Shown: positions 8,430 to 61,400, counted from the stretch's first letter. The stretch: 64,000 nucleotides of DNA from a virus (IMGVR_UViG_3300028797_000101:1-64000), one strand, 5' to 3'. Notes: generated by a model from the letters alone, not told the origin. A program made the numbers and translations.

Positions 8430-8492
8430 ATTGCTTCGTTATAATCATATGAACAAAAAGATATTCAGATACACGAAAGGAGAGCAACAAAC

Positions 8493-8981: not shown

Positions 8982-9059
8982 TAATTACCTTCATTCAACC
9001 TTTAATATCAGTGATATCTCAATGATCTCAAAGTAATTCTAGAGAGGTGGATAAGTCAC

Positions 9060-9641
9060 ATGAAGAAATATATCAAGTCAAGTTCATCAGCTTATGGTTG
9101 GTGGAATCAGTACTACAACGACATGAGCATCGAGGAAGCTTGCAAAGAAACAAATCAGACTCCTGAAGAGCTCATTGCAGAGTATCAGGAAGTTGCTGAC
9201 TCGTATGGTTACACCTTCAGAGGTTTGCTAGAAGCAAAACCTGAGTACTTCGATAACTTAGATGAGCTGTGGTGCATCAGCAAGTACACTGATGAAAGGG
9301 GCAACCTTGTTGTGGGCCTGCAGATCAACGATCGTCTTTACACGGTAGATCAGCAAGAAGTTCTTGACAAACTAACTTCTGATGAGGACGAAATGGAAGA
9401 AGACCCTTTGAGCGCATATGAAGATCAAGGTTTCAGCGTAGAGCAGCTTGAAGAAATCCAAAAAGGTCTTATGGATGGATTAGACGTCAGTGTATATGCA
9501 GATCCAAAGTATGACTTTTGGCAGATGCGCGAAATCAGACGGGGTCTTAAATCAGGAGTTGACGTCAGTCAATACGCAGACCCAAAATTCAATGGTAGTC
9601 AGATGTTTGCAATCAGAAAAGATCTTGAAGATAAGCAATAG
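9060..9641 (+). CDS. MKKYIKSS-tagged protein with ~24-aa DVSxYADPKF repeats
   Basis: N-terminal tag; C-terminal repeats QxxEIxxGLxxGxDVSxYADPKF. Confidence 0.8.
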   Translation: MKKYIKSSSSAYGWWNQYYNDMSIEEACKETNQTPEELIAEYQEVADSYGYTFRGLLEAKPEYFDNLDELWCISKYTDERGNLVVGLQINDRLYTVDQQEVLDKLTSDEDEMEEDPLSAYEDQGFSVEQLEEIQKGLMDGLDVSVYADPKYDFWQMREIRRGLKSGVDVSQYADPKFNGSQMFAIRKDLEDKQ

Positions 9642-9662
9642 AAGATTTGGAGGATTTCTTAC

Positions 9663-10034
9663 ATGAAAAGATTCATAGTAGCTTCAACTGAAGATGATTG
9701 GGAGTGGAACCCGTTTTCAAATGGTACATATTGCGTCTCTGGTGACTACACTGTGAAGTACACCAACGACCCTAAGACTGCTATCAAGATGTGGTATCAG
9801 CTGCAGAAGAAAGATCCGATGGGCGTCGCTATATCCTGCTTGACAAAAGAACAAGCAATTGCACTTTGCAAAGCAGCTACAGAAGATTACATCTATTCTT
9901 TAGCTGAGAAATACAAGTGCCCTTACAAGCCGGAATGGCTTGTTGACGAAGCTGTTAGAAAGGTAGCTGACGGTCAAGAATATTTTCATGAAAGCGATTA
10001 CGGTGATACCATACATCCTTTCGGAGTAGGCTGA
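9663..10034 (+). CDS. Tagged hypothetical protein (MKRFIVAS)
   Basis: SD GGAGG, N-terminal tag. Confidence 0.8.
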   Translation: MKRFIVASTEDDWEWNPFSNGTYCVSGDYTVKYTNDPKTAIKMWYQLQKKDPMGVAISCLTKEQAIALCKAATEDYIYSLAEKYKCPYKPEWLVDEAVRKVADGQEYFHESDYGDTIHPFGVG

Positions 10035-10633
10035 ATACACAATGATTCAAGGAGCGCAACAATATGAAAAAGTATATTAAACCTGCAAGTTCAGATAGCG
10101 TCAGGACATCATTGGATCTCTACAGCAATCAAAATTTTGATGAAGATCAACTTGATGAAATACGCAAGGGTCTTGAAGCAGGTGTCGATGTTAGCATATA
10201 TGCTGATCCTAAGTTTGATTGGGTGCAGATGCAAGAAATCCGACTAGGACTTGAATCTGGAGTTGACGTAAGTGTCTATACCGATCCAATGTCGTTTGAT
10301 GGATGGCAGATGGAAGAGCTTAGAAAGGGTCTCGAATCCGGCGTCAATGTCAGCGTCTATGCGGATCCCAGGTTTGGTGATTGGCAAATGAAAGAGATCC
10401 GAAAAGGTCTAGAATCTGGTGTCGATGTCAGCGTATATGCAGATCCTAAGTTTGACTGTGATCAGATGAGGGCAATAAGAAAAATTCTTGAATCCGGATC
10501 TGATGTCAGTACATATTTCAAACACATGCATGAGTTGTCCACAATCATACACAGGTAGATATCTCTCATTTAGCATATCTACCTGTTGTAGAGTGAATAT
10601 GGTGATACTATACCTCCTTTCGGAGTAGGCTGA
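10002..10633 (+). repeat. 33-bp direct repeat (10002-10034 / 10601-10633)
   Basis: GGTGATAC[C/T]ATAC[A/C]TCCTTTCGGAGTAGGCTGA, 31/33 identical; copy of the 3' end of gene 9663. Confidence 0.9.
10064..10558 (+). CDS. Tagged tandem-repeat protein (MKKYIKPAS; ~5 x 24-aa repeats)
   Basis: Repeats QMxEIRKGLESGVDVSVYADPKFD. Confidence 0.8.
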   Translation: MKKYIKPASSDSVRTSLDLYSNQNFDEDQLDEIRKGLEAGVDVSIYADPKFDWVQMQEIRLGLESGVDVSVYTDPMSFDGWQMEELRKGLESGVNVSVYADPRFGDWQMKEIRKGLESGVDVSVYADPKFDCDQMRAIRKILESGSDVSTYFKHMHELSTIIHR

Positions 10634-11208
10634 GTAGAAGCAGTTGAAATCAATTCAATAGGCAAGGAGTAGAAGATGAAAAAGTATATAAAGAGTGCAA
10701 CTAAATTTTACAATTATCGGCTTGATGAAGATCACCAAGCGGATCGACTTAACATACCTGCAGCATCTGTTAAGGCCAAAGTATTTCAAAATGTAGATCC
10801 AAAAGATGTAGAGGTTTTCCAGTATCTTGTGGATAACAAAGTAATTCCAACTATTGTTTCTAGCGGAAACCTAAGAAACAATCCTTACTACGATGAAAAG
10901 GACAAATTCATAAAAGTTGTGAAGGAAAACTCCGATAGGAGAACTTACTCCATTCCTGTAGCAGGTGGTGGAAGATTTGGTACCGGATCAATATTTGCGT
11001 ATCGCATCACTGTTGACGACGACGGAACTATTCAGTTTGGTGATGGTAGAATTGTAGATCCATATAAGTTGAAGCCAGCTACGCTTAAATCATATTTCTA
11101 CAAATACGGATACTAAGAAAAACATCTATCTGGGTCATTCAAACACATATACACGTTGCCCACAATCATACACAGGCAGATATCCCTCATGTAGCATATC
11201 TGCCTGTT
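10517..11208 (+). repeat. 71-bp imperfect direct repeat with 12-bp hairpin (10517-10587 / 11138-11208)
   Basis: TTCAAACACAT...CACAATCATACACAGG[T/C]AGATAT...ATATCT[A/G]CCTGTT; copy of the 3' end of the minus-strand gene 11135-11782. Confidence 0.9.
10676..11116 (+). CDS. Tagged hypothetical protein (MKKYIKSA)
   Basis: SD AAGGAG, tag. Confidence 0.8.
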   Translation: MKKYIKSATKFYNYRLDEDHQADRLNIPAASVKAKVFQNVDPKDVEVFQYLVDNKVIPTIVSSGNLRNNPYYDEKDKFIKVVKENSDRRTYSIPVAGGGRFGTGSIFAYRITVDDDGTIQFGDGRIVDPYKLKPATLKSYFYKYGY

Positions 11209-11782
11209 TTAGTTTGTATTGACGACGTGATGCATCAGATATCTTCTTATCATCTTTCATCCACCACTTAGTTTTCTGAATATCTCTAACATGCTTCATA
11301 CCGATTGATTCATAATCTTTGTAGTTCTCAAAGGACATGTTAACATATGCTATGATAGAATCTATTTCGAACTTAGATGCTTCTGAAGATAAAATGTCAT
11401 ATCCATCAATCACATTATAAGTAGGTAACATCCAAAGTCTAGATAATTCCGCTGTGAAATTCTTATCACGAGATTTCTTAAACGTCATGATGCAGTAAGT
11501 TTGATCATCTTTAACAAGTCCTAAGGAAAGAACATTTCCGCGAGGTGCACCGAATGGATGATATGTGTTAAGCCAAGTATCAGCATATGATTTTTCAAGC
11601 CTAAACACACTCAAAGAAGAACCTTCTATATTGTTGATACGAGGTTCCTGATAAAATAAGACAGTACGGCGCTTAGATTCAAATGTTTCACGTCTTTTAT
11701 CTTGAACTTCAGATAATTTAGAAACATTATCTACGCCGTATGTAGATAATAAAGTTTGTTTTCGTTTTTCGTTAGTATTCAT
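11135..11782 (-). CDS. YG-repeat plus GNAT/Mom-like domain protein (truncated relative of 15133-16656)
   Basis: TYGVDNVS repeat; WLNTYH...LGL...MTF...ELSRL...IIAY...GYLPVYDCGQ colinear with the central domain of 15133-16656; no nuclease domain. Confidence 0.6.
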   Translation of the reverse strand: MNTNEKRKQTLLSTYGVDNVSKLSEVQDKRRETFESKRRTVLFYQEPRINNIEGSSLSVFRLEKSYADTWLNTYHPFGAPRGNVLSLGLVKDDQTYCIMTFKKSRDKNFTAELSRLWMLPTYNVIDGYDILSSEASKFEIDSIIAYVNMSFENYKDYESIGMKHVRDIQKTKWWMKDDKKISDASRRQYKLKQADMLHEGYLPVYDCGQRVYVFE

Positions 11783-12230
11783 AATCAATTATCCACCTTT
11801 GTAAATGAGCACAATGTGACAGGAGGTCTATTATATGAAGAAAGTTATTGCATCATTAAGCACCGAATCATTCGATGTAAAAGAACCACTCAGCCATCTT
11901 ACAGAGGCGCAAATTGCTGCGTTACCTGATCGGTTTGCTGTTAAGACTCGTATCCCTGGAGGAAATTACGGGTCCAAGTTCGTAGTACTTAGTAAAGCAA
12001 GATTTATAGAAAATCCTCGGGAATGTGTTTTCATTGATAGCTATTGGGGATACGCACATCCTGGCGATATTTACTTGGCAACTCGAGAAGATATATACAA
12101 TTATCAGAGCAGACGATCAGCTGAGTTAGATCAAGAAAAGGAGATTCTCAAAAATCGAGTTCGAACATTAGCTAATGCTGCTGTTATGTAGATGCTGCTG
12201 AAGCTTATTTTATTTTTCGTTAGTATTCAT
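11765..12230 (+). repeat. 18-bp exact direct repeat (11765-11782 / 12213-12230)
   Basis: TTTTTCGTTAGTATTCAT flanking gene 11835-12191. Confidence 0.85.
11835..12191 (+). CDS. Tagged hypothetical protein (MKKVIAS)
   Basis: SD AGGAGGT. Confidence 0.75.
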   Translation: MKKVIASLSTESFDVKEPLSHLTEAQIAALPDRFAVKTRIPGGNYGSKFVVLSKARFIENPRECVFIDSYWGYAHPGDIYLATREDIYNYQSRRSAELDQEKEILKNRVRTLANAAVM

Positions 12231-12266
12231 TGTAAATAAATATAAGGTGAAAGAGAGGTACAAGTC

Positions 12267-12596
12267 ATGAAATTATATGTATCGGCTGCAAAAGCTTCTA
12301 GTGCTAGATCTTCAATTCGATTGAATTCGAAGTCTAATAGAGATCTGTTAGATGCGCTTACTCAGGACATGCTTTACCAAACATTTGAGAATTATCCTGA
12401 CTGCAACTTAGATGATGCTTATGAATATACATTAGACCATGTCATACTAGCTATAACGGAGATGGATGATGAAGAGGAGCCTATGTATTCATCGTTACTT
12501 CCGTTCGCAAATCATGAAAACGAAGAATTCTGTAACATGGTGAAACGTATTGTGAACGATCATTATGATGATTTCAATTGGTACGATGAAGTCTGA
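12267..12596 (+). CDS. Tagged acidic protein (MKLYVSAA)
   Basis: SD GAGGT, tag. Confidence 0.75.
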   Translation: MKLYVSAAKASSARSSIRLNSKSNRDLLDALTQDMLYQTFENYPDCNLDDAYEYTLDHVILAITEMDDEEEPMYSSLLPFANHENEEFCNMVKRIVNDHYDDFNWYDEV

Positions 12597-12670
12597 GTCA
12601 GCGAATTGTTTAATGAATTGCGCACAGTAACATCGGTTGAACTATTTGTAAGATAGCAGGTGAGGTAAGG

Positions 12671-12901
12671 ATGAAGAAATACATACAAGCTTCAGCAGAA
12701 GCAACAAATGAGCAGTTAGATCAAGTATTTAAGAAAACGGAGGCAGCTAACATGACTGAATACGCTCAGTTACTAGAACTAATACAAGAGCTACAACAGA
12801 AGATTGAAGCACAAGATGAACGAATTTCAGAGCTTGAGTGGAAAGTTGAAGAATTGTATTCGGAATATAAATCAGAGCACGATCCTTACCGATATGATTA
12901 A
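12671..12901 (+). CDS. Tagged coiled-coil protein (MKKYIQAS)
   Basis: Tag plus heptad-rich body. Confidence 0.75.
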   Translation: MKKYIQASAEATNEQLDQVFKKTEAANMTEYAQLLELIQELQQKIEAQDERISELEWKVEELYSEYKSEHDPYRYD

Positions 12902-12943
12902 ATATTTTTGGCGCATAAACATAAGGTGACGGAGGTACAAGTA

Positions 12944-13507
12944 ATGAAGAAATACATACGATCCTCAACAGAAGTAACAAACGAGTATCTGAATCAATTG
13001 TTCAAGAAAATAGATTGGGATGATGTTGATTATGCTGACAGGCTTATCGACAGAACTATAAAGAAGTACATACCTGTTGATAACATATTTGATCAAGCAA
13101 AATACATAAACATGCTGGACGAAGATGTAAAACAGGAACTTATGTCCTTGCTTGAATCTCCAGAAGCTATACATGAAAAGCGTATGAAGAGCAGGAAGCA
13201 ATCTAAATCCCGTAGTAACAAATCTGAAAGTACAGAACTGTATGTCAAGTTCGAAGATTATCCAGATGGAAACATCAAGGAAGATAAATTCACTGGAAGT
13301 AACAGGCTAGACGCACTGAAGAAGATGGTAGACTCTTTACTACTTTATCTAGATGTAGACACCATAGAAGAAGACAATCTTTCAGATGAAGATGTAATAA
13401 AAGCTTTAGAGCTACAGAACGGTGACGGGTGCGACTACATCATTCGTCTAGAAGATAAGAACACCGGAGAAGTCCTCATGGATTATCCTTATGAAGAAGA
13501 ATTTTGA
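12944..13507 (+). CDS. Tagged hypothetical protein (MKKYIRSS)
   Basis: Start reassigned to ATG 12944 after GGAGGT; first 22 aa similar to gene 12671. Confidence 0.8.
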   Translation: MKKYIRSSTEVTNEYLNQLFKKIDWDDVDYADRLIDRTIKKYIPVDNIFDQAKYINMLDEDVKQELMSLLESPEAIHEKRMKSRKQSKSRSNKSESTELYVKFEDYPDGNIKEDKFTGSNRLDALKKMVDSLLLYLDVDTIEEDNLSDEDVIKALELQNGDGCDYIIRLEDKNTGEVLMDYPYEEEF

Positions 13508-13537
13508 GAAGCATAGAAAAGTATAAGTAGGTTAAGC

Positions 13538-13930
13538 ATGAAACGATACATTCAATGTGCAGAACAATCTAACGGAGTATTTTGGGTCATTGATGACGAA
13601 CTTTTTGCATTCCCTTTTTACGAAGGATATTCAGGACACGGAGTTGCAAAATCAGGTTCAACATTTAATCATGAGAAGCTTTGGCCTGAAATAGCGCCTA
13701 AGTCTTGTAGAAACAAACCATTTGATTACTATCCAAGAGGCAGAGTTCAGCTTAAGAATGATGGCTCATCTATTATTTACATGAATCCAAACATTGATGA
13801 ATCGATGATTCCAGAAATCAAACGTCAATTCGGTCTTAGATCTGATCCAGAAATTCATCTAGATAACAGCATACACTACAGATGTCATCTAGATGATGGA
13901 TATGTATCAAATAAGAAAAGCAGAAGGTGA
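13538..13930 (+). CDS. Tagged hypothetical protein (MKRYIQCA)
   Basis: Tag; GVFW...H...W...DYYPRGRV...HY motif. Confidence 0.75.
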   Translation: MKRYIQCAEQSNGVFWVIDDELFAFPFYEGYSGHGVAKSGSTFNHEKLWPEIAPKSCRNKPFDYYPRGRVQLKNDGSSIIYMNPNIDESMIPEIKRQFGLRSDPEIHLDNSIHYRCHLDDGYVSNKKSRR

Positions 13931-13937
13931 GGTACTT

Positions 13938-14228
13938 ATGAAGAAATACATACGAAGCGCAGCAATACAGCCATCATACCATGTAGGTGATGTAGTATAC
14001 ACCGGAAACGCACTCGGCTATCAAACCACAAGTGAAATACAAGGGGACATAAATAACTTTCCGGAAAGCCTTGCAGACTATGTAAGAAACATCTACTACA
14101 TAGGCGATGACGTCTACAAAGTTGAATGGCTCACAGACGAAGATCATCTGTTTGAATCAAACTATCAAAGATTCTTTGACAAAGTATACAGAGTATTAGA
14201 AGCTTCAGGATTCACTGTTTTAGATTGA
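13938..14228 (+). CDS. Tagged hypothetical protein (MKKYIRSA)
   Basis: Start reassigned to ATG 13938 after GAGGT. Confidence 0.75.
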   Translation: MKKYIRSAAIQPSYHVGDVVYTGNALGYQTTSEIQGDINNFPESLADYVRNIYYIGDDVYKVEWLTDEDHLFESNYQRFFDKVYRVLEASGFTVLD

Positions 14229-14240
14229 TGGAGGTAACAC

Positions 14241-14450
14241 ATGAAACGATACATTAGAGCTGATTCAGGAGTTAAGTACGTAGTATATGCTGAAGGAACT
14301 TGGAAAAACTACAGGGCGCTGTTTCGAAAGCGGAATGGGTCTTCAAGGTATTCAACTGAAGCAGACGCCGATAAACTCGATGAAGCGCTCGCGAATAGAT
14401 TCTGTAATCAAACTGGTGGTAAATACACTTGGGTGAAGAAGAAGGTATGA
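14241..14450 (+). CDS. Tagged small basic protein (MKRYIRAD)
   Basis: SD GGAGGT, tag. Confidence 0.75.
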   Translation: MKRYIRADSGVKYVVYAEGTWKNYRALFRKRNGSSRYSTEADADKLDEALANRFCNQTGGKYTWVKKKV

Positions 14451-14526
14451 ATCACGTCCAGTTGTGCAGAGTGTGAACAACTAGATCGTTATATCTCATA
14501 TACGACAATATAAGGAGATAAAGGTC

Positions 14527-15141
14527 ATGAAATTATACATACGAAGTTCCGAAGAAATAAATGAACCTGGTGTTCTATTTGAGGACTACATACTTATTGA
14601 TGTGGATGCTTCAGATATTAAGAGCATTTGTGCATCTGAGGAGATTGCTAGATTTCCTGGACCTGAAATATTTCGACAAGACGTAGCGAAGATTCTACAA
14701 AATGAGTACGGCTTCGACATCATAAAAGAGTCAGGTGGAAAATTAGGTTATGTAAGTAATAAAAATGGTAGTGAGTCTGTATATTTCAACGCGTACTACG
14801 ATCTATCTAATTCAGATCCTGTTTTGAAACGAGTCGGCACATCTGTAAAAGCTCCAGAGTCTGGAAAAGTTCATTGCTTCATACATTTTAGATTTTCCGG
14901 ACATATCTTAGAAAATGTAGGTGATGCAGATCACAATGATTTCTTGAATGATAATTTGGCCAAACACATACAAGGTCATCCGGAGATAAATTTTACAGTT
15001 AAAGAAGAACCTGTAATAATACCAGAACGAACATTGCTCTTAGAGTATAACAAAGTAAAAGAATTTGTAGAAGACGAATTGGATGTAAGAATATTTGGGT
15101 GGGTTCATAGAGCACTTAAGCAACATCCTGAGTTATTTTGA
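14527..15141 (+). CDS. Tagged hypothetical protein (MKLYIRSS)
   Basis: SD AAGGAG, tag, internal ICAS site. Confidence 0.75.
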   Translation: MKLYIRSSEEINEPGVLFEDYILIDVDASDIKSICASEEIARFPGPEIFRQDVAKILQNEYGFDIIKESGGKLGYVSNKNGSESVYFNAYYDLSNSDPVLKRVGTSVKAPESGKVHCFIHFRFSGHILENVGDADHNDFLNDNLAKHIQGHPEINFTVKEEPVIIPERTLLLEYNKVKEFVEDELDVRIFGWVHRALKQHPELF

Positions 15142-16656
15142 ACGTCTTTTTCTATATGATATCTTAGCTTTCTCTCGAGCTTCAGCAGAATTGCCTGGAA
15201 CTTTACAGCCGTAGCGTTCCAGGCTTGTTTGTTGTGTTTTCTTAACTCTACATTCATAGGAACAGGCAACTGGTGGACGCTTCAGATTTTCAACATTATC
15301 TTCGAGGTACTGCTTTCCACATATTGGGCAAGTTCTATAGTGCGGACGCTTGCAGTAGCGTTGATGACTAGACGCAGGTATAAATGATTCTCCGCAGAAT
15401 TCACACTTTCTTTCTTTTGATTTTCTTGTCATCTCAACTAATTGATTGTAGTCCATTTCGATAGATGAATTGGTATCATAACCTTGTTCTGTATCGAGTA
15501 ATTGCATAGCATACACAGCTTGACCGCAATCATAAACCGGAAGCCACCCATCTTTTATCATCAACTCTTCATTAGACGTACCTTTACCGTAGTTAGCATT
15601 AAACAACTTATCATAACCCAAAGCCCGTAGTGTAGATCCTAGAATCTTATCGTTTCCTTTTGACCATACTTCTTGTGGAGTATTGATCCGAACGAGCTTC
15701 AGACCTAATCTTTCATACACATCACCATCAAATTTCGACATATCACAGTACGAAATGATGCTGCTAGATTTGAGAAGATCTAGTGAGTGTTTGAATAATC
15801 TACTTGCGCCACTGACAACTTGTATTTCAGGCCTGGTACACAATCTAAGCAATTCATATTCATATTTCGTGTTGTATCTGGGTTTGCCAAATGTCATCAC
15901 CTGTACTAGTTCATTGTGATAGTATAGTCCCAGACGTAAAACAGAAGATCTAGTATGTCCCTGAAGATGATAAGCGTCTAGGAACTCATCACACGCATGC
16001 TTGTCCACTTCTTTCAATTCGCAGTTTCTAGCAAACACTTTGTGCCTAGGTTTAAGCATACTCACTATCTTGTTTACATCGTCCCAATCAAATATGTGTA
16101 TACATCTGTAACCATGTTCATGCGCAATTGCAGTCTTAATCTTATGATAATTTTCCTGTATACCTGTTTTTGTCCAATGATTTCCTATAACATTGTGCGT
16201 GTACGAGGGATCTATTTCAATAACTATATTGATGTCAGGGAGTAAAAGATCATACATCTTATCTTCTATTTTGAACTCGTAGATTACTTTGAATCCTGCT
16301 TCCTCAAATAACTTCCCGATCGCTTTATTCTCAGAAGATACTCGAAAATGCGAATTACTCAAGTATTCATCTGTCATCACATAGTACGGAACTCCATACA
16401 GCTCCATCATTGTATCTTTGAATTTCTCTCGAAACTTCGGAACCTTCATCGCACAATTCACTCCGTACTTATCTAACATCGTATTCGCTATCTTATCGAC
16501 AAACTGCTTACTGTGCATAACATTGTCCACACCATATCTTTCTATGCAAGTTGCTTTACGTTTCTCAACCGCTTGCTTCTGACTACAACTTCTACACAGA
16601 CCTGTTACACTACTATCAGATATAACTGAGTTACAAATGCTACAATACTTTGACAT
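15133..16656 (-). CDS. Hef/Vsr-like homing endonuclease fused to a GNAT/Mom-like domain and Zn-ribbon
   Basis: E[RK]YGV repeats; YEF...YDL...IEID..Y.H...GYRCIHIFDWD nuclease motif; FLDAYHLQG...ELLRLC...GASRLFK...IISYCD GNAT-like domain; C-terminal CxxC clusters. Confidence 0.7.
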   Translation of the reverse strand: MSKYCSICNSVISDSSVTGLCRSCSQKQAVEKRKATCIERYGVDNVMHSKQFVDKIANTMLDKYGVNCAMKVPKFREKFKDTMMELYGVPYYVMTDEYLSNSHFRVSSENKAIGKLFEEAGFKVIYEFKIEDKMYDLLLPDINIVIEIDPSYTHNVIGNHWTKTGIQENYHKIKTAIAHEHGYRCIHIFDWDDVNKIVSMLKPRHKVFARNCELKEVDKHACDEFLDAYHLQGHTRSSVLRLGLYYHNELVQVMTFGKPRYNTKYEYELLRLCTRPEIQVVSGASRLFKHSLDLLKSSSIISYCDMSKFDGDVYERLGLKLVRINTPQEVWSKGNDKILGSTLRALGYDKLFNANYGKGTSNEELMIKDGWLPVYDCGQAVYAMQLLDTEQGYDTNSSIEMDYNQLVEMTRKSKERKCEFCGESFIPASSHQRYCKRPHYRTCPICGKQYLEDNVENLKRPPVACSYECRVKKTQQTSLERYGCKVPGNSAEAREKAKISYRKRRSK

Positions 16657-16807
16657 ATCTTCACCTCCAATTATATTATATGTTATTTGGCCAAGACCGT
16701 CAAGTGGTTTTGTAAATAAATATAAAATACTCCTTAGTTCTTACGCCAGAAGTAATCTTATATAATGATGAAGTTGATTCTACATTATAATCAAGGAGGT
16801 GAAAAAT

Positions 16808-17353
16808 ATGTTCAGTCCGCTTTACTTAGGTACTAACCACATGCTCGGTGTAGACAATTATGTACCTTTGACTACGAATAACTTTGAAATTCGTATCTAC
16901 AACATGGACGGATCCACTCCGGCAGAGTTCTCTGATCTCCTTACACTTTCTACGGATGAAGTAGGAGCAATACAGGAGCAGCAGGACAGCATCATCGTTC
17001 ACTACGGCAACGGTATCATCAAGTTCCCTAGCAAGGTTACATTTGACGATGTTGAATGGACTCTTAACTGCTATTGTGAACCCAATGTACTTGAGGCCCT
17101 TAGAGAATGGAGACGTCAGGTTTACGATCCCGATACAGAGAAGATGGGTCTGCCTAGCCAATATATGAGGCAGGTATTCTTCATTAAGTATGACGGTCAG
17201 GGAAATCCCAGGGACGTAATTCGCTGTCCAGGCACATGGATCGGCAGCTTAAATAATGGACAAATGTCTCAGACCGGTGGAGAAGTAGTGAAAGTCAGTG
17301 TTCCCCTTCACATCTCTCGTGCTATTTACATGAAGCCCGAAGATTTCAGGTAA
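16808..17353 (+). CDS. Tail tube protein (T4 gp19-like)
   Basis: NNFEIRI...VHYGN..IKFP.KVTF...W...VYDP.T..MG...Y...YD..G......GTW pattern; ATG 16808 after GGAGGT. Confidence 0.75.
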   Translation: MFSPLYLGTNHMLGVDNYVPLTTNNFEIRIYNMDGSTPAEFSDLLTLSTDEVGAIQEQQDSIIVHYGNGIIKFPSKVTFDDVEWTLNCYCEPNVLEALREWRRQVYDPDTEKMGLPSQYMRQVFFIKYDGQGNPRDVIRCPGTWIGSLNNGQMSQTGGEVVKVSVPLHISRAIYMKPEDFR

Positions 17354-17366
17354 GATTTTAGAAAGC

Positions 17367-17399
17367 GTCGGCGGGTAGAAATGCTCGCCGATTTCTTTT
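17367..17399 (+). terminator. Intrinsic terminator
   Basis: GTCGGCGGGT...GCTCGCCGAT plus TTCTTTT. Confidence 0.75.
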
Positions 17400-17463
17400 G
17401 ACTTCTACGACAGGTGTTTATCAACAACTTTCATCGTTATTGATAAACAGGAGGACTATATCT

Positions 17464-19134
17464 ATGAAACAATGTGTGTTGTGCGGAGAAATGTTTGAAC
17501 CTAAAAAGAATGCTCAGAAGATCTGCGAGAGGATTCACTATCGGGCTTGCAAAAACTGTGGAAAAGAGTTTGTTATTACTCGCCCATCTGCTTCTCAAAT
17601 GTGTTGCTCTAAAGCCTGTACTGCTGCTTTGAGAAAACAGACAATGCTATCTAGGTATGGCGTTGAACATGCTTTGCAGAGTGAGGAGTTTGTTCGTAAG
17701 TCTCAAGAGACATCTATGGAGCGGTATGGCGTCAAGAGTGCAATACAGAATAAAGAAATCTTGAAAGCAACACAGGATAAGTTTATAGAGAAATACGGTG
17801 TGTCTACACCTTTCTTGATGAAAGGCTTTTCTGAGAAATCTAAGACCACCTGTTTAGAAAAATACGGAGTAGAATTTACATCTCAGATTCCTGGACGAAC
17901 AGAGAAGATGCAAGCTACTAATCTTGAAAAGTATGGCTTTGTAGCACCTCTAGGCGATGCAAACATTCGCAGTAAATCATATCGAAACAAAAAGCACAAA
18001 AGTTCGCTAGAGATAAGACTACATCAGTTCCTCTCTGAGTACAATATCGAATATGCTTCAGAATACATCATAACTAAAGATGGTCTGACGCATGCATATG
18101 ATTGCTACATACCTAAATACAAAATATTAGTTGACTGTGATGGTACATACTATCATAGTTATTTAGATGATCCGGATGGAAAACAGGTTAGAGATGATTA
18201 TGATGAGGTTAGACTGCTTTTAGTACCTGACGATCATATCTTTCTGGTTATTGTAGAGTCTTCATTTGAATCTGGATTGAAGCAGCTTCAAGATACCATT
18301 CGTGGACTTGATGCAGGAGTGCTGAATCATGATACTAACCTATTTAACTGGTGTAGAACTGTGAGATTTCCATATCCTCATTTCAGCCTAGAACGTCTTA
18401 ACAAAGAATACAACAAACTGTGCTCATTGGAGTTAACCACCTACAATCCACATTGTAAAATAGGGCAGTCCATCATTCAGCATTTTCATCCATCTATCTA
18501 TCATTGTCATGTGAACGGAAAGGTTTCCCCTTATGACGGTTGGAATAATGATGACATTCTCAAGAAGTGCATCGCTAATCGTCTTATTTATCAGAATGAT
18601 GTGGATCCTTCAAAAGTACTTTATGGATTTACTGCATCTAAATTAGCACCGAAAGTTTCTGTATTCAATCCTGTATTGTCAAGATACTTAACACTCAAGT
18701 ACTTAAGTGAGTATTCAACTATTGTGGATCCGTTTTCAGGATTCTCTGGAAGAATGCTCGGAGTATGTTCAACAGGAAAACACTATATTGGAAGAGACTT
18801 GAATGAAACTTCTGTCAAGGAAACAAATGAAATCCAAGGATTCTTTAATCTGGCTGCTACAGTAAGCGTAGAAAACATATTGGATCATACCTCTAATGAA
18901 CCTGAGGTTTCTGCACTACTTACTTGCCCACCCTATGGGCACAAAGAAGTGTACGGAACTGAAACAGTATTCAAATCCTGTGATGAATGGATAGACGTCT
19001 GCTTAGAAAAATACAAGTGTAAAAGATGTGTGTTTGTTGTTGATGAAACCACAAAGTATTTAAATCACGTTGCAGAAGAAATCAAGCATTCTTCACATCT
19101 AAGTAACACAAAAGAACTGGTGATTGTTATCTAG
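17464..19134 (+). CDS. Zn-ribbon/YG-repeat Vsr-like endonuclease fused to an amino-DNA-methyltransferase domain
   Basis: Five [EK]YG[VF] repeats; SSLE...EY...YDCY...VDCDG.YYH nuclease motif; DPFSGFSGR (SAM-binding motif I) and TCPPY (motif IV). Confidence 0.7.
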   Translation: MKQCVLCGEMFEPKKNAQKICERIHYRACKNCGKEFVITRPSASQMCCSKACTAALRKQTMLSRYGVEHALQSEEFVRKSQETSMERYGVKSAIQNKEILKATQDKFIEKYGVSTPFLMKGFSEKSKTTCLEKYGVEFTSQIPGRTEKMQATNLEKYGFVAPLGDANIRSKSYRNKKHKSSLEIRLHQFLSEYNIEYASEYIITKDGLTHAYDCYIPKYKILVDCDGTYYHSYLDDPDGKQVRDDYDEVRLLLVPDDHIFLVIVESSFESGLKQLQDTIRGLDAGVLNHDTNLFNWCRTVRFPYPHFSLERLNKEYNKLCSLELTTYNPHCKIGQSIIQHFHPSIYHCHVNGKVSPYDGWNNDDILKKCIANRLIYQNDVDPSKVLYGFTASKLAPKVSVFNPVLSRYLTLKYLSEYSTIVDPFSGFSGRMLGVCSTGKHYIGRDLNETSVKETNEIQGFFNLAATVSVENILDHTSNEPEVSALLTCPPYGHKEVYGTETVFKSCDEWIDVCLEKYKCKRCVFVVDETTKYLNHVAEEIKHSSHLSNTKELVIVI

Positions 19135-19244
19135 TTTATTCGTTATCATGTTGTAAGAATATTTATTATTTTATGAAACATATCAACCTTCAATATACAT
19201 TGAGGGCAAGTAAATCCAATCTAGAACGAAAGGGAGGCATCAAC

Positions 19245-19571
19245 ATGAAGAAATATTTGAAAGTATCTGATCAATGTACTGACGAAGTAGATGAGGTAAA
19301 TACATGTACTCAGGCAGAACCTGGAAGAGAAAGCAAGCTGAAGGTTCAAGCTTCTACATCGTTGTTCTACGATAATGATACAGCAAGAGATACATTTATG
19401 TCTGCAATACAGAAGGGGATAATAAGCGAAGAAGAAGCTATCAATATGCTTGTCGATTTCATAGGAACTAAGACTGCAATTTCTTCTCTGTTGTATGATG
19501 TGGGTGCGGATGATATAGAGGACATGTTTGATGCAGAAGGGCTCATGGATAAATTAGATCAACCTGAGTGA
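19245..19571 (+). CDS. Tagged hypothetical protein (MKKYLKVS...KVQAS)
   Basis: Start reassigned to ATG 19245 after GGAGG. Confidence 0.7.
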   Translation: MKKYLKVSDQCTDEVDEVNTCTQAEPGRESKLKVQASTSLFYDNDTARDTFMSAIQKGIISEEEAINMLVDFIGTKTAISSLLYDVGADDIEDMFDAEGLMDKLDQPE

Positions 19572-19614
19572 TATGCTGCCACTGATTTTGTAAAACATTT
19601 TCGGAGGATAAACC

Positions 19615-19950
19615 ATGAAGAAGTTGATACTCAGTGCTCAATCGAACAAATCGTTGTATAAGTACGCGGGTATTGTCCGCATAAGAGATGAGAAAGTGGA
19701 AGATAACAAAGTGCTTCATACAAGAGCGATGTCTACTAAGGAAGCGGCGAATAATTTCAGATGGCAGATCGCTAATGCTAGAAATGTCCGCTATGCTGAT
19801 GTGTTTATAGATGTGTCTAAAATCACTGAGATTGACGAAGATGTGCCTGTTTCATATACACCGGCTAAACTTACATGTGATAGGTGTGGAACAAGACTTA
19901 CAGATTCTGGAGAGTGCCCTGTATGTGATTTAGGCGAAGAAGATATTTAG
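19615..19950 (+). CDS. Tagged protein with C-terminal Zn-ribbon (MKKLILSA)
   Basis: CDRCG...CPVCD. Confidence 0.7.
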   Translation: MKKLILSAQSNKSLYKYAGIVRIRDEKVEDNKVLHTRAMSTKEAANNFRWQIANARNVRYADVFIDVSKITEIDEDVPVSYTPAKLTCDRCGTRLTDSGECPVCDLGEEDI

Positions 19951-19957
19951 AATAACA

Positions 19958-19993
19958 GGGCTGAGATGTCAATGATCTCAGCCTCTATTTTTG
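19958..19993 (+). terminator. Intrinsic terminator
   Basis: GGGCTGAGAT...ATCTCAGCCT plus CTATTTTT. Confidence 0.7.
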
Positions 19994-20042
19994 AATGGTC
20001 ATGTTCAATAACAATGATGCAAATACAAGGAGGATACTTGTC

Positions 20043-20354
20043 ATGAAAAGATATGTACGTGCAGCTACTTTATCATTTGAAAAACAGGAAGGGTTGGGAC
20101 TTAATGCTCCTGTTTTGAAATTATCTAATGGGGATGAGGTGAAGTTAACCGTGTCTGCTTCTGACCGAGGCTATGATATTAAAAATCTAGATGCAGCTGC
20201 AGATGTAGATGAACATTTTGTAGAGAGTTTTGACCTACATGGTGTAGGCGGAAAGAAATATAAAGTAACCAGAGAGGTTACAATCTATAACAAAAACGCT
20301 AAAGTTAGAGGCGGCAGATTCAAATCAAAGATCGTTAAAGTAGAAGAGATCTAA
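20043..20354 (+). CDS. Tagged hypothetical protein (MKRYVRAA)
   Basis: Start reassigned to ATG 20043 after AGGAGG. Confidence 0.75.
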   Translation: MKRYVRAATLSFEKQEGLGLNAPVLKLSNGDEVKLTVSASDRGYDIKNLDAAADVDEHFVESFDLHGVGGKKYKVTREVTIYNKNAKVRGGRFKSKIVKVEEI

Positions 20355-20386
20355 GATACTCTTTAGAAAGGATCAGGTTTGATACA

Positions 20387-20896
20387 ATGAAAATGTATAT
20401 TAAGTCTCAAAAGTACATTTACGCAATGTCTACTGAACGAAAAAAGTTCATCAAACAATTAGAATCATGGGAAGAAGAACTTACTGAGCACATTGCAAAA
20501 TGTGTAATGTATGGAGATTCTCTAGGTGTTAACAAATACAATCATTGGATTGAGCACGAAATCGCAACCTGGTTAAATGATGCCAATGATACATTAGTTA
20601 AACCTTCTAACAAGAAGCTGAAACCTAGGGATTATGCATCTACTTTGTTTGCAGGATTAGGCACAGATAGAGTAGACGCTCGAGTAGTATTGCACGATCT
20701 TCAAAGAATGAATCATAAGTCGGCAGAACCTTATCCAGATGTTGATGTAGATTCTGCGATGATAGAAAGAATGTTTCAAGCAAGCAATTCTATTGTTAAG
20801 ACATTCTTACCTATTCTTAGTAGTGTTAACTCTTTATCTAAAGAGGATATTGAACGTAAGTTACATGAAGTTCTGGATCCAATCTGTTTGAAATAG
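20387..20896 (+). CDS. Tagged helical protein (MKMYIKSQKYIYAM)
   Basis: Tag; EHIAK...Y...HW...EI motif loosely DUF29-like. Confidence 0.65.
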   Translation: MKMYIKSQKYIYAMSTERKKFIKQLESWEEELTEHIAKCVMYGDSLGVNKYNHWIEHEIATWLNDANDTLVKPSNKKLKPRDYASTLFAGLGTDRVDARVVLHDLQRMNHKSAEPYPDVDVDSAMIERMFQASNSIVKTFLPILSSVNSLSKEDIERKLHEVLDPICLK

Positions 20897-22644: not shown

Positions 22645-22673
22645 TTGACTTTTCATGGATATCCGTCTATAAT
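22645..22673 (+). promoter_or_regulatory. Host sigmaA/sigma70-type promoter
   Basis: TTGACT-17 bp-TATAAT with A/T-rich upstream region. Confidence 0.85.
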
Positions 22674-32891: not shown

Positions 32892-33323
32892 GTGATGAAA
32901 ATACTAAACACATTAGAGCCTTACAAAGTATTAGACACAGAGGGTGGTATTCAATACGGTGTATGCAGAGATTTTTCACATGTATCTAGATACAGAGGTC
33001 TTCGCCAAGTAACACATTGTCCTGATGTAAGAGAAGATCGTTTCGTTGCATTTGAAACACCTAATCCGTTTACAACACATACATATGTGAAATACTATGA
33101 TGTCCCTGAATTTGAAGAAAATCGACTTGACCTTATTGCGTACAAGTTCCTCGGCGATGCAACATACTCCTGGGTGCTTGCATACTTCAATCATATTGAA
33201 GATGGATTCACAGTAAAAGAGGGTCAGAGACTTATGATTCCAAATTCTATCACAGATCTGTTCAATAAAGGAGAGATGCTTGCTCCTATCAATCCTACAA
33301 AACTCAATCTTGGAGGCGAATAA
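32892..33323 (+). CDS. Baseplate wedge LysM-like protein (T4 gp53/P2 gpX-like)
   Basis: RLDLIAYKFLGDATYSWVLAYFN...G..L.IP. Confidence 0.75.
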   Translation: MMKILNTLEPYKVLDTEGGIQYGVCRDFSHVSRYRGLRQVTHCPDVREDRFVAFETPNPFTTHTYVKYYDVPEFEENRLDLIAYKFLGDATYSWVLAYFNHIEDGFTVKEGQRLMIPNSITDLFNKGEMLAPINPTKLNLGGE

Positions 33324-33883
33324 TGAAACGATACATACGTGCATCGGAAAACATCAGACAGAACGAGTATAACACATATCTTGCTTCACACATACAGGGA
33401 GTAAATGATGTCTGGAACCAGATGCTCAGGCCTGCCGTAACAGAACATCTAGATGAATTAAATGAAGAGTTCGGCATTACAGATGAAGATATCGCTGAAT
33501 GCGATAACACAATCATGTATCATGATGCATCTAAGTATGGTGATGAAGAGTATGATGCGTATTGCAATCATTGGTACCCAACAGAGAAAACTCCTGCAGA
33601 TGAGGATGCATATGAAATAGCTTGGATACATCATAAACGCGTAAATTCTCATCATTGGCAGCATTGGCTTTCAGTTCATGATTCTGGGTCAGTTGTTCCT
33701 GTAGATATGCCAGCAAGTGATGTGTTCGAGATGCTGTGTGATTGGCATTCGTTTTCAAGACGCGATCCAAGTTCTACTGCGCCCGGGTGGTACAAGAAAC
33801 AAAAATCCAAGATGATCTTATCATCTAACACAAAGAAACTTGTCAAAGCTTTACTTCCATTCTTAAAGGAGCCGCTTAAATAA
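33323..33883 (+). CDS. Tagged HD-like metal-binding protein (DUF5662-like)
   Basis: MKRYIRAS tag; H...V...HDASK...AW.HH...N.HHWQHW...MP....EM.CDW. Confidence 0.75.
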   Translation: MKRYIRASENIRQNEYNTYLASHIQGVNDVWNQMLRPAVTEHLDELNEEFGITDEDIAECDNTIMYHDASKYGDEEYDAYCNHWYPTEKTPADEDAYEIAWIHHKRVNSHHWQHWLSVHDSGSVVPVDMPASDVFEMLCDWHSFSRRDPSSTAPGWYKKQKSKMILSSNTKKLVKALLPFLKEPLK

Positions 33884-43966: not shown

Positions 43967-44308
43967 ATGAATTCAACATTGTTATTTACACCTGCAGCGC
44001 TCATGGATCTGTTAACACAGATTGAAGAGCTCAAGGACAAAGAGATCGAGATAAATGAAAGTTCAGATGGATCTATTTCCTTGAAAATAGGTGAGTCTAC
44101 TTACAACATAGATTCATCTGATGCAACTGAACTTGCAGCTGATGAAGATACGGTAGATGCTGTAGATGAAATAAATATGGAAGCATATGAAGAGGTGCAG
44201 GACAAATCAGATGCAGATGAACCTGTTACGTCTGGAATTCTTAAAGAGATGGTTAAATCACTCATGCTTGGCGGCATGATTCGGCTTTCTAAAAAATTAT
44301 TAGATTAA
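43967..44308 (+). CDS. Acidic head-module protein
   Basis: Directly upstream of the protease; contains PVTSG site. Confidence 0.55.
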   Translation: MNSTLLFTPAALMDLLTQIEELKDKEIEINESSDGSISLKIGESTYNIDSSDATELAADEDTVDAVDEINMEAYEEVQDKSDADEPVTSGILKEMVKSLMLGGMIRLSKKLLD

Positions 44309-44320
44309 GGAGTGATAGAG

Positions 44321-45724
44321 ATGAAAGATTCAAAGATCAAAGCAGATGTAGCTCTCAATGCGAAGCCTCTTGCTATCTTAGGCGAGTACGCAGGTGAATG
44401 TGCAGATGCAAATATCACTAACAAGAATGGTCTTGATATCACAAGGCCTGTGTGGGAAGGTGTATTTGCATCGGAGGAGTACAACGAAGGCATCAAAAAT
44501 GGTCATTACATCGGGTTCCTCGGACATCCTGAAGATCCAAACTGCATGGATTTCGAGCATGGATGTATTGTGATGACAGAAGGTCACATTGATCCAGATG
44601 GAAAGGTTCAAGGCAAATTCAACCTTGTTAACACGCCTGTAGGTCAGATTGTAAAAACTTTTATAGACGCAGGAGTTAAATTCGGCATATCTGTTAGAGG
44701 TGCTGGTGACATTGTAGACAATTCCGTAGATCCTGATACGTTTGTATTCAGAGGATTTGACCTTGTAGCGTTTCCTGCATATCCTAACTCCATTCCTACT
44801 TTCACAGAGATAGCCGCGTCTACAGACGCTGTTCAGCAAAAGAAATATCAAGCGGTTTGTGCTGCGGTAACAAAAAACTTAGATACACTTAACAAGACTG
44901 AGGTAGATGTTATCCAGGCTAATTTCGCAAAGCAGTCCAAGGAATATGCTGCACTTGAAACCAGAAAGAAAGTTTTAGCGGGTGAGCAAGTAGAAGTAAC
45001 ATCAGAGGCTGCAGAAGCTGTAGTTGCTTCTCAAAAGCTCGACGCTGTAACAGCTCTTTATCTAGAAGCACAGAAAAAGAATAAAGTTTTGCAGTCTGAA
45101 AACATCCATCTTCGTCAGCTACTGAAGACAATAAAATCTGCAGATAGCAGAAAGATCGACAGCTTGAATCGCATAACAGCTGCTCAAATGAGAGACATGG
45201 ATCAAGCTCTTGCAGATGCAGCTAGTAGAACAAAGAAAGCTGTACTGAGCAATCATTCTTTATCCAAAGATCTAGCAGACGTGACAAAGCGTCTTAAGTC
45301 TGCTGAAGATACTAACCTTAAATATAGTCAGAAGATCGAAGCCAACACTCAAATTATTCTGGAAAAGGATTCTATCATTTCTAAGCTTCAATCAAACTTA
45401 TCTGAAACTGTCAGAAAGGCCAATGATGCAGAAGCTAAGACATCAAACTGTGATGCACAGATAGCGAGCCTTCAACGAAAGATCGAGGCTGCACAAGCTC
45501 TCGTAGATGAGTATCAGAACGCATATGCACAGATTTATGCAAATGCAATTGGTGTAGGTCTAGAACACGTTTCTGTAACAGCAACAACGACTGTTTCAGA
45601 ACTCCAACAGATCATAAAGGGATCCTCCAAGTACACTTCTGGAGCGCAAGAAGCTGTTTTAGCTTCGGCACAAATCTCCGAAATAGGTACAGACATGGAT
45701 GACTCTTCCCTCATCACGTTGTAA
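44321..45724 (+). CDS. Prohead protease (T4 gp21-like) fused to coiled-coil scaffold
   Basis: N.NG, GFLGHP (His), GISVRGAG (Ser), FDLVAFPA (Asp); C-terminal ~300-aa coiled coil. Confidence 0.9.
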   Translation: MKDSKIKADVALNAKPLAILGEYAGECADANITNKNGLDITRPVWEGVFASEEYNEGIKNGHYIGFLGHPEDPNCMDFEHGCIVMTEGHIDPDGKVQGKFNLVNTPVGQIVKTFIDAGVKFGISVRGAGDIVDNSVDPDTFVFRGFDLVAFPAYPNSIPTFTEIAASTDAVQQKKYQAVCAAVTKNLDTLNKTEVDVIQANFAKQSKEYAALETRKKVLAGEQVEVTSEAAEAVVASQKLDAVTALYLEAQKKNKVLQSENIHLRQLLKTIKSADSRKIDSLNRITAAQMRDMDQALADAASRTKKAVLSNHSLSKDLADVTKRLKSAEDTNLKYSQKIEANTQIILEKDSIISKLQSNLSETVRKANDAEAKTSNCDAQIASLQRKIEAAQALVDEYQNAYAQIYANAIGVGLEHVSVTATTTVSELQQIIKGSSKYTSGAQEAVLASAQISEIGTDMDDSSLITL

Positions 45725-60332: not shown

Positions 60333-61124
60333 ATGAAAATCATTTCCAGTAGACTAGATGATGTTCGCATGGAGAAGGAGAACTACGAACGCGACTATGC
60401 AGAACAGAAGGCTAGATATGATGAACAAAACGCTGCTTACACACGAGCAACTAGAGCGGTGCTTGACAACATTGAATCTGCACTTCTTCAGCAGATAAAC
60501 GCAAGAACTTCTCAGAATGTTAAGGTGAAAGCAGAACGAGACTTTTCTTACAGATATCCTCAAGAGTCCTTTGTACAGGTTAAAGTATATGCAGAAAATC
60601 CTGGATGGCCGTTAAGATGGTCATGGTATGCAAATATCAATCAAGAAACTGGCGAGGTGGAGAAATCTTCCAACAGCTATTCAGGTATCGAAGCTACAAC
60701 TCCTGAAGACATCAACATGCTCAAAGAGTCTTTAGACGTAATGGACTACTTAGTAAATCAAGTAGATTGGAACACATTACTTCATGTGCAGCTTCCTAAA
60801 GGTTCTGATTATTTTACAATGAAGCAGCCTGAGCGTAGAAATTTTGCTCAAGCTGAGGCAGACGCGCTGATTGCCGATTGCGTAGGTCAGCCGATCCTTG
60901 TCAAATGTACTGTAACTAGCGATAATTACAGAGTCAAAAAATGGGTTAGGTTCTTATCACAAACTGCTGCTTTCTACAATGTAATAACTATCAGCTCTTC
61001 TTATTCTGCGGAAGAGCTGGAAAACGATTTCAAAGAACTGACTGAAGTCAAATATCCTCAAAGAATAAGCAAGGCTAAAATCTTCCCTGTTACACCTTTT
61101 GAAACAATAGAGATTTTAGAGTAA
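60333..61124 (+). CDS. Hypothetical protein with short tag variant (MKIISS)
   Basis: SD AAGGAG. Confidence 0.65.
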   Translation: MKIISSRLDDVRMEKENYERDYAEQKARYDEQNAAYTRATRAVLDNIESALLQQINARTSQNVKVKAERDFSYRYPQESFVQVKVYAENPGWPLRWSWYANINQETGEVEKSSNSYSGIEATTPEDINMLKESLDVMDYLVNQVDWNTLLHVQLPKGSDYFTMKQPERRNFAQAEADALIADCVGQPILVKCTVTSDNYRVKKWVRFLSQTAAFYNVITISSSYSAEELENDFKELTEVKYPQRISKAKIFPVTPFETIEILE

Positions 61125-61163: not shown

Positions 61164-61400
61164 ATGTTAGCATACATTAAATCTGCTCAAGACCCTAATG
61201 CAGATCCATTAGGTGATATCATGGACACAGTCGAAGATGATTTCGATTTCATCATGTCAGGATTAGATAAGCTGGGTCGAGAGAAGTCGACACAAGGTCA
61301 AGCTCTGACAATTGCATCTAACATGGCAGATGGGTTCCAGAGCATAATCAAAGACATAGCGAGTGCGCTGAAAGGAGAAAGAGTAAATGAGACCGAATAG
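61164..61400 (+). CDS. Tagged small protein (MLAYIKSA)
   Basis: SD AGGAGG, tag variant. Confidence 0.7.
   Translation: MLAYIKSAQDPNADPLGDIMDTVEDDFDFIMSGLDKLGREKSTQGQALTIASNMADGFQSIIKDIASALKGERVNETE

Follow-up and report, generated by a model that had tools for sequence, protein, structure and literature searches.

A short N-terminal tag on unrelated phage proteins is a candidate cleavable address for capsid loading

We analysed a 64,000-nucleotide stretch of DNA from an uncultured virus (IMGVR_UViG_3300028797_000101:1-64000, hereafter the window). An array of genes at 9060-20896, together with scattered genes elsewhere, encodes proteins that start with a peptide of the form MK[KR]Y[IV]x[AS][AS]. 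This tag is an N-terminal add-on common to unrelated proteins. We propose that the tag, M-K-[KR]-Y-[IV]-x-[AS]↓[AS] (the arrow marks the predicted cut), is a clip-off address peptide equivalent to the capsid targeting sequence of phage T4, and the sequence evidence leads us to give this reading a probability of about 0.65. The tagged proteins would probably be loaded into the capsid and trimmed, as the internal proteins of T4 are.

Results

A peptide shared by unrelated proteins

All 19 tagged N-termini listed in an initial annotation of the window were recovered, all on the + strand; those at 60333 and 61164 are weak variants (Table 1). A GGAGG-type ribosome site is located 5-12 nt upstream of nearly all of these genes. 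A crude gene call gave ~237 genes genome-wide, 25-26 of which are tagged, and 16 of the tagged genes are found at 9060-20896. The annotation had proposed a motif-enrichment test on the N-termini of the whole proteome, and the enrichment is strong. The strict form MK[KR]Y[IV]x[AS][AS] is present at 9 N-termini, compared to 0.0007 expected from the position-specific N-terminal composition of the other genes. Shuffling the columns 2000 times gave a mean of 0.015 and a maximum of 1, and the strict heptad does not occur inside any protein of the proteome. A looser form is found at 23 N-termini (0.05 expected), with internal copies near chance (13 vs 10.7). The consensus over 55 tags from three genomes is M, K, R/K, Y, I/V, K/R, A/S/C, S/A. 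Six tag strings had no occurrence in the searched literature.

As initially noted, the tag is common to proteins with unrelated bodies. BLASTP with the tag removed revealed a sole exception, the pair 9060 and 10064, which have a 27-residue repeat in common. The observation that no hydrophobic stretch follows the tag, which had been used to argue against a secretion signal, also holds. The codons of the tag vary: TAT and TAC are used 9:9 and AAA and AAG 13:10, Ser is encoded from both codon boxes, and Arg by CGA, AGA and CGT. Synonymous codons are thus free in the tag, indicating that selection acts on the peptide. An origin of the tag as a DNA repeat or an RNA/mRNA signal was rejected on this codon variation.

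The record is a complete phage genome of 159,304 bp with direct terminal repeats, and the window corresponds to its bases 1-64000. The guanine-cytosine content is 37-45%, and nearly every gene is on the + strand with a GGAGG-type ribosome site. Judging from these sites, the hosts are probably Bacillota. The structural genes span the record ends, with the terminase at 142.5 kb, the portal at 146.4 kb (146441-147949) and the sheath at 150.4 kb. The window continues this block with a 1143-residue structural protein at 3386 and tail and baseplate genes at 22-42 kb, followed by the head protease gene at 44321 and the major capsid gene at 45751, and the tagged array (9-21 kb) sits inside it. No near-identical phage was detected when the array was compared by megablast with 50,697 phage records.

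Predicted cleavage by the prohead protease

The protein encoded at 44321 matches PHROG 207 'head maturation protease' (E 5e-22) and Pfam Peptidase_S77 (28.7 bits, cutoff 27). For an AlphaFold2 (AF2) model of its first 185 residues, the top match is T4 gp21 (5JBL; E 1e-4, probability 1.0). Herpesvirus proteases are the next, weak structural matches. Because the remainder of the protein is coiled-coil-like, we regard it as a protease-scaffold fusion. Inspection for a Ser-His-His catalytic triad, as in assemblin-type proteases, showed that His69 (in G-H-P) and Ser124 (in G-I-S-V-R) do not vary within the clade; no third catalytic residue was recognised. Related sequences were taken from 26 IMG/VR loci collected through the capsid protein (57-97% identity), and the sister phages were labelled G001-G004. 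The nearest cultured phages by capsid protein (26-27% identity) are Streptococcus vB_SagM-GXN1, Bacillus vB_BceM-HSE3 and Listeria LIS04 (a Thornevirus). A long protease gene adjoins the capsid gene in HSE3 and LIS04 too.

The motif [IV]x[AS][AS], which ends the tag, is more enriched in the protease-scaffold than in any other protein of the proteome (8 vs 1.3 expected), and the capsid protein ranks fourth (6 vs 1.4 expected). Alignment of 17 protease-scaffolds revealed an invariant [IV]-A-A-[ST] directly after the protease domain (residue ~165), a conserved R-I-T-A-[AS]-Q in mid-protein, and [IV]-T-A-[ST]-T about 45 residues before a conserved ..[LI]VTL C-terminus. A K-I-K-A-D site is located near the N-terminus. 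In 17 relatives, [IV]-x-A-[AST] is unchanged at the capsid propeptide junction, the scaffold C-terminal site and the protease N-terminus. The alignment of 18 capsid proteins starts with 70-100 variable residues rich in Arg, Pro and Ser. These are followed by an invariant [IV]-[TM]-[AG]-A-T-N-T-x-N-I-M-A-R-P-D-F, with more [IV]-T-[AS]-x sites upstream. This pattern has the appearance of a cleaved propeptide. The end of the tag matches these conserved predicted maturation sites of the capsid protein and the protease-scaffold. Within the capsid propeptide itself (45751-46020), R-R-P-V-x-[AS] units recur and [IV]-x-[AS]-[AS] is found at several sites, suggesting that the propeptide may be chopped into small pieces, like that of T4 gp23.

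The known gp21 motif is [LI]-x-E↓, and T4 gp21 itself contains LIE-9 (cleavage logo in PMC9026906). Giant phages have A/S/G-x-E sites, including AXE and SXE (PMC5694885). The Glu of [LI]-x-E is absent here; the tags and the conserved sites have Ala or Ser, sometimes Cys or Gly. The sites were compared with those of HSE3, LIS04 and GXN1 in a column-for-column alignment. The capsid junction I-T-A-A-T-N-T is aligned on L-L-E-S-T-D, M-T-E-S-T-Q and L-L-E-T-T-Q of the cultured relatives, the scaffold C-terminal site V-T-A-T-T-T-V on I-T-E-S-T-S-L and L-P-E-S-I-T, and the protease N-terminal K-I-K-A-D on V-L-K-E-L. The counterparts in the cultured relatives follow [LM]-x-E↓[ST], the T4-type motif, and Glu is replaced by Ala at three homologous sites. 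The residue before the cut (P1) is therefore predicted to be the first small residue, and the tag would be cut as M-K-K-Y-I-K-[AS]↓[AS]. Placed in this way from the homologous sites, the cut would follow residue 7 and release seven residues. The annotation had described the tag as T4-like and Ala/Ser-terminated. Its end does fit the protease motif; the cut is likely inside the Ala/Ser pair, not after it.

Two other genes in this region were considered. The small conserved gene at 43967 has a tagged homologue (MKKRYIRSAE) only in sister phage G004. A start at 43074 (MKDIVSAS, TTG start codon) was rejected as that of a tagged head protein, as none of its homologues in 15 relatives begins in this way.

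Presence and absence of the tag among related phages

Two families of tagged proteins exist with and without the tag. The DUF5662 protein encoded at 33323 has 91 homologues. The distant ones start at the domain itself (MSxxYxxYLxxH), and about 20 nearer ones carry the tag and a short linker. In the 13538 family, most near homologues begin with the tag or a slight variant of it, and distant members have the first strand as their start. In an AF2 model of this protein (predicted local distance difference test score, pLDDT, 85), residues 1-12 have no structure. A degenerate DNA pattern for the tag gave 0-2 matches, the control level, in phage records with untagged members, and 1-9 in those with tagged members. 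The same pattern gave 26, 25 and 24 matches in G001, G002 and G003, all on the coding strand, and the reversed pattern gave 0. Only ~6 tags are found in G004.

The tagged set changes quickly. Homologues in G003 or G004 were found for 5 of 26 tagged genes, compared to 34-40% of all genes (81-94 of 237). This agrees with the initial description of a variable cargo, and the fast turnover between sister phages is like that at the T4 internal-protein locus. The three large tagged proteins encoded at 155-157.7 kb have tagged homologues in G002. Taken together, the comparisons indicate that the tag is modular and portable and that the cargo set is replaced quickly between sister phages.

Several related N-termini and linkers were observed. 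The homologue of the tagged gene 64239 is the C-terminal end of a 995-residue tagged protein in G004. A 633-residue protein with a central methyltransferase domain (65630-67531) contains linker-like stretches with I-T-S-S, V-K-S-A, I-T-S-A and I-K-A-S. The 232-residue protein encoded just before the terminase block (140153-140851) starts with M-M-K-A-I-F-A-S, which is maybe a shortened tag and was not counted. No tag of the MK[KR]Y[IV]x[AS][AS] kind was found in HSE3, LIS04 or GXN1. A faint pattern is seen in HSE3 (6181, 32285, 45248, 81065 and 83283): three small proteins start with MIR[SK]..., followed by L-x-E within 10 residues, and two large proteins start with M-x-x-[RS]-I-T-E. These N-termini may be a small Glu-type counterpart of the tag.

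Nature of the tagged proteins

Body length ranges from 52 to 476 residues among the tagged proteins, and the bodies also differ in composition and in domains, which include DUF5662, a BspA-type leucine-rich repeat (LRR) domain, tandem repeats and a zinc ribbon. Pfam and PHROGs gave no match for almost all of them, and an 'Organ_specific' match on the 10064 protein was rejected as a repeat artefact. PDB sequence searches with the 14527, 155050 and 20387 proteins gave no match. The annotation had proposed predicting structures of the cargo. For the 13538 protein the prediction succeeded, giving the AF2 model described above, and the subsequent Foldseek search had no match at E <= 0.001. The best VIA-align hit of this model (Z 4.2, gelsolin/ADF-like) was unconvincing and was discarded. 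In the ESM Atlas, the 10064 protein matched only viral hypothetical clusters, and the 155050 protein gave nothing usable.

Two sequence features stand out. A 27-residue tandem repeat, G-V-D-V-S-V-Y-A-D-P-K-F-x3-Q-M-x-E-I-R-x-G-L-E-S, is found at 9400-9641 and 10100-10540. It is also present in three tagged proteins of G003, and belongs to a virus-only family with a confident Atlas model. The tagged 476-residue protein at 155903-157333 contains the BspA-type LRR domain (Pfam LRR_5, E 2e-37). In G003, LRR proteins with lengths of 429 and 604 residues lack the tag, and an LRR protein would be unusual as capsid cargo.

Organization of the array

The promoter-like motif GAACCTTaTATA occurs 22 times in forward and 6 times in reverse orientation. 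At distances of 30-100 nt it precedes the portal, sheath, tail and head-proximal genes, as well as the tagged genes 9060 (copy AACCTTTAATATC) and 19245 (copy AACCTTCAATATA). The annotation had placed the array behind late-type ACCTT motifs. Those at 8998 and 19186 are present, and the copy near 11795 is weaker. We infer the label 'late' from the genes that the motif precedes. The placement of GAACCTTaTATA supports, but does not prove, co-expression of the array with the structural genes. A second promoter-like motif, TTCGTTAT(A), is strand-biased and occurs 20 times in forward and 2 times in reverse orientation, at 8435, 19139, 20902, 51255 and 62652 and at 15 more positions genome-wide. It is distinct from GAACCTTaTATA and from sigma-70-like TTGAC...TATAAT sites, which are located at 22650 and 121.8-125 kb. 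Three classes of promoter therefore seem to be present.

The array is split by three homing-endonuclease-like paralogues, which fits a plastic region. Members of this DUF7487 family are also found at 21180-21656 (+) and at genome positions 152631-154682. The paralogues contain zinc-ribbon repeats and share a G-W-L-P-V-Y-D-C-G-Q motif; they interrupt the sheath region as well as the tagged array. Two copies are on the otherwise almost empty minus strand.

Table 1. Coordinates of the tagged genes, the head genes, and the motifs and genes within and around the array (aa, amino acids).
Coordinates	Strand	Feature	N-terminus	Length (aa)	Remarks
8997..9010	+	AACCTTTAATATC, copy of promoter-like motif GAACCTTaTATA			62 nt before first tagged gene
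9060..9641	+	tagged gene	MKKYIKSS	193	acidic body; C-terminal half with 27-aa repeat common to 10064
9663..10034	+	tagged gene	MKRFIVAS	123
10064..10558	+	tagged gene	MKKYIKPAS	164	about five 27-aa repeats; tagged homologues in G003
10676..11116	+	tagged gene	MKKYIKSA	146
11135..11782	-	untagged interrupting gene			paralogue of homing-endonuclease-like genes
11835..12191	+	tagged gene	MKKVIAS	118
12267..12596	+	tagged gene	MKLYVSAA	109	very acidic; tagged homologue in G003
12671..12901	+	tagged gene	MKKYIQAS	76	coiled-coil-like
12944..13507	+	tagged gene	MKKYIRSS	187
13538..13930	+	tagged gene	MKRYIQCA	130	widespread phage family, distant members without tag
13938..14228	+	tagged gene	MKKYIRSA	96
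14241..14450	+	tagged gene	MKRYIRAD	69	basic
14527..15141	+	tagged gene	MKLYIRSS	204
15133..16656	-	untagged interrupting gene			DUF7487, homing-endonuclease-like
17464..19134	+	untagged interrupting gene			DUF7487, homing-endonuclease-like
19185..19198	+	AACCTTCAATATA, copy of GAACCTTaTATA			59 nt before 19245
19245..19571	+	tagged gene	MKKYLKVS	108
19615..19950	+	tagged gene	MKKLILSA	111	C-terminal CxxC...CxxC
20043..20354	+	tagged gene	MKRYVRAA	103
20387..20896	+	tagged gene	MKMYIKSQ	169	tagged homologue in G002
33323..33883	+	tagged gene	MKRYIRAS	186	DUF5662, domain from residue 13
43967..44308	+	small conserved gene			just upstream of protease, position of T4 prohead-core gene 68; untagged here
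44321..45724	+	prohead protease-scaffold		467	gp21/S77 fold ~residues 1-165, coiled-coil scaffold-like tail
45751..47277	+	major capsid protein			Pfam Gp23 E 4e-18; ~90-aa variable propeptide, then I-T-A-A-T-N-T
60333..61124	+	doubtful tagged gene	MKIISS	263	weak variant
61164..61400	+	tagged gene	MLAYIKSA	78	variant tag; homologues in G002 and G003 tagged
64239, 81582, 82538, 83048, 83516, 155050, 155903, 157354		further tagged genes			outside window; groups 81582-83857 and 155050-157716

Discussion

Our analysis suggests the following route for the tagged proteins. Their synthesis would coincide with that of the structural proteins. During prohead building, M-K-K/R-Y, the basic and aromatic first part of the tag, may dock them to the protease-scaffold core. 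The prohead protease, which in this clade would prefer Ala/Ser at P1 instead of Glu, would then cut after residue 7, with Ile/Val at P3, and free folded cargo inside the head. Analogy is our only guide to the last step, in which the cargo would be released along with the DNA when the next host is infected. An injected, anti-defence role of the cargo is likewise suggested by analogy. The full proposal is that, in an uncultured T4-type clade of phages of gut or rumen Bacillota, the gp21-family head protease was re-tuned from Glu to Ala/Ser at P1, a specificity like that of assemblin, and a 7-residue tag loads ~25 or more mostly acidic, rapidly exchanged proteins for injection. This is tentative, and we rate it slightly below even odds. 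It is pure speculation that Ala/Ser specificity hides the protease from host sensors triggered by L-x-E loop cutting, an idea that follows PMC12991175.

Several observations weigh against the proposed route. The [IV]x[AS][AS] motif has low information, with 193 occurrences in the proteome compared to 135 expected, and some tags have D, E, Q or L at the residue after the cut (P1'). The protease motif is itself predicted from conservation, and in the cultured relatives the L-x-E sites are predicted as well. Most of the tagged bodies are acidic; the median pI is 4.8, 73% are below pI 6, and net charges go down to -29. The internal proteins of T4 are basic and lie against the DNA, and the expectation of a T4-like, DNA-associated cargo does not hold here. 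None of Pfam, PHROGs, PDB, Foldseek, VIA-align and the ESM Atlas yielded a cargo function. Several tagged genes are located outside the structural block (61-64 kb and 81-84 kb), some of them near DNA-modification genes. GAACCTTaTATA is not strand-biased in G003 (10 vs 11), and the 'late' label is therefore not generalisable. In addition, TTCGTTAT also precedes 19245 (at 19139), and the timing of array expression is only inferred. Finally, T4 gp21 is able to cleave a protein of the cytoplasm in vivo (PMC12991175), so cutting alone would be no proof of packaging.

The last point leads to an unlikely alternative, in which the proteins are processed and not delivered. They could be a transient prohead core or filler that is expelled or degraded, or pro-proteins that the protease activates late, in or outside the prohead. 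The cargo is acidic, as scaffolds are, and the tag resembles the protease's own N-terminal leader. In vivo cutting of a cytoplasmic protein by gp21 also suits this alternative, and retention in the virion is argued by analogy. However, folded domains of 8-50 kDa are unable to exit a closed shell as small peptides do, and fast turnover and diversity suit accessory effectors better than assembly parts. In T4, all proteins with such a leader end up in the head (PMC9026906).

It is less probable still that the tag directs the proteins to a different partner and is left uncut by the head protease. Such a partner could be a modifying enzyme of the type acting on ribosomally synthesized and post-translationally modified peptides (RiPPs), a chaperone, a degradation system or another virion compartment. 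In favour of this, neither the capsid sites nor the scaffold sites have a counterpart of M-K-[KR]-Y. Three conserved maturation sites, however, have the motif that is found at the end of the tag. The genome contains no SPASM domain, and its sole radical-SAM match is in a queuosine cluster at 85.9 kb. No candidate partner gene is found beside the arrays, where the neighbours are homing-endonuclease-like.

We consider it very improbable that the tagged proteins are divergent paralogues, descended from one ancestor and recognisable only at the N-terminus. The genes are indeed small, clustered and fast-evolving, and 9060 and 10064 are true paralogues. The bodies, however, are unlike in length, composition and domain content, two families exist both tagged and untagged, and conservation of the N-terminus alone would need a function anyway. 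A nucleic-acid-level signal (a translation enhancer, an mRNA repressor site or a recombination cassette junction) is close to refuted: an A-rich start (AAR AAR) favours initiation and the array genes could exchange by microhomology, but synonymous codons are free at every position, with both Ser boxes and three Arg codons in use, and the regions upstream of the start codons differ among genes.

A cleavable address peptide has a precedent in T4. The leader MKTYQEFIAE of IPII and IPIII and related leaders of IPI and Alt are removed by gp21 (PMC8442874; PMC9026906; PMC3012670). The first 10 residues of IPIII are sufficient for packaging; residues 4 and 7 function in targeting, and residues 8 and 10 in processing (PMC9026906). 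The internal proteins of T-even phages share only the targeting sequence (PMC3012670), which has been suggested as a general loading route for varied proteins in T4-like phages (PMC9026906). The present case has several features in common with T4. A short N-terminal leader is the only thing common to unrelated, fast-changing proteins, it appears to end in the motif of the head protease, and the protease (S77) and capsid protein (gp23) belong to the same families. Both leaders start with M-K-x-Y, and beyond this only Ile at P3 is common to their sequences. One tag here reads MKTYISAS; such peptides are too short for statistics. The differences are also clear. The tag is 7 residues long, compared to 10-19 in T4, and its predicted P1 is Ala/Ser instead of Glu. 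About 25 genes are tagged here, and 6 to 26 or more in sister phages, compared to a handful in T4. The cargo is mostly acidic instead of basic, the protease is fused to the scaffold, and the host is probably a member of Bacillota. Cutting and packaging are predictions from sequence here. The principle is already foreseen in the T4 literature, and our finding extends it.

The protease-scaffold also resembles herpesvirus assemblin (pUL26), in which a protease-scaffold fusion contains release and C-terminal maturation sites, Y-L-Q-A↓T and V-Q-A↓S (PMC4498786). In both, a coiled-coil scaffold follows the N-terminal protease domain in a single polypeptide. One site directly follows the protease domain and another is located tens of residues before the C-terminus, which in the phage is a sequence pattern only. 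The sites have the form (V/L/I)-x-A↓(S/T), and P4 of the release site is Tyr; the predicted site in the tag reads Y-[IV]-x-A↓S. The folds are related, and homology between gp21 and herpesvirus proteases has been cited (PMC5694885). Unlike assemblin, the phage protease is closest to T4 gp21, and assemblin sites have no known cargo-tagging role. The likeness in specificity may be convergent. In the giant phages phiKZ, 201phi2-1 and SPN3US, many different head and ejection proteins are packaged in the head and processed by a protease related to gp21, and their propeptides contain several sites each (PMC5694885). Their propeptides, however, are mostly longer than 100 residues and have no uniform tag, P1 is Glu, and processing was shown by mass spectrometry.

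About a tenth of the phage's genes carry the tag. If it is a cleavable address peptide, it would provide a one-line rule for reading the packaged and injected proteome of an uncultured clade of gut and rumen phages, and dozens of small acidic proteins would become candidates for the first proteins to reach the host. A gp21-family protease that cuts after Ala/Ser would provide a specificity link between the maturation proteases of phages and herpesviruses, and the homologous Glu-to-Ala sites make such cutting directly testable. The T4 targeting sequence has been used in E. coli to package foreign proteins. A portable 7-residue tag would similarly offer a simple means of loading foreign proteins into phages that infect Gram-positive hosts.

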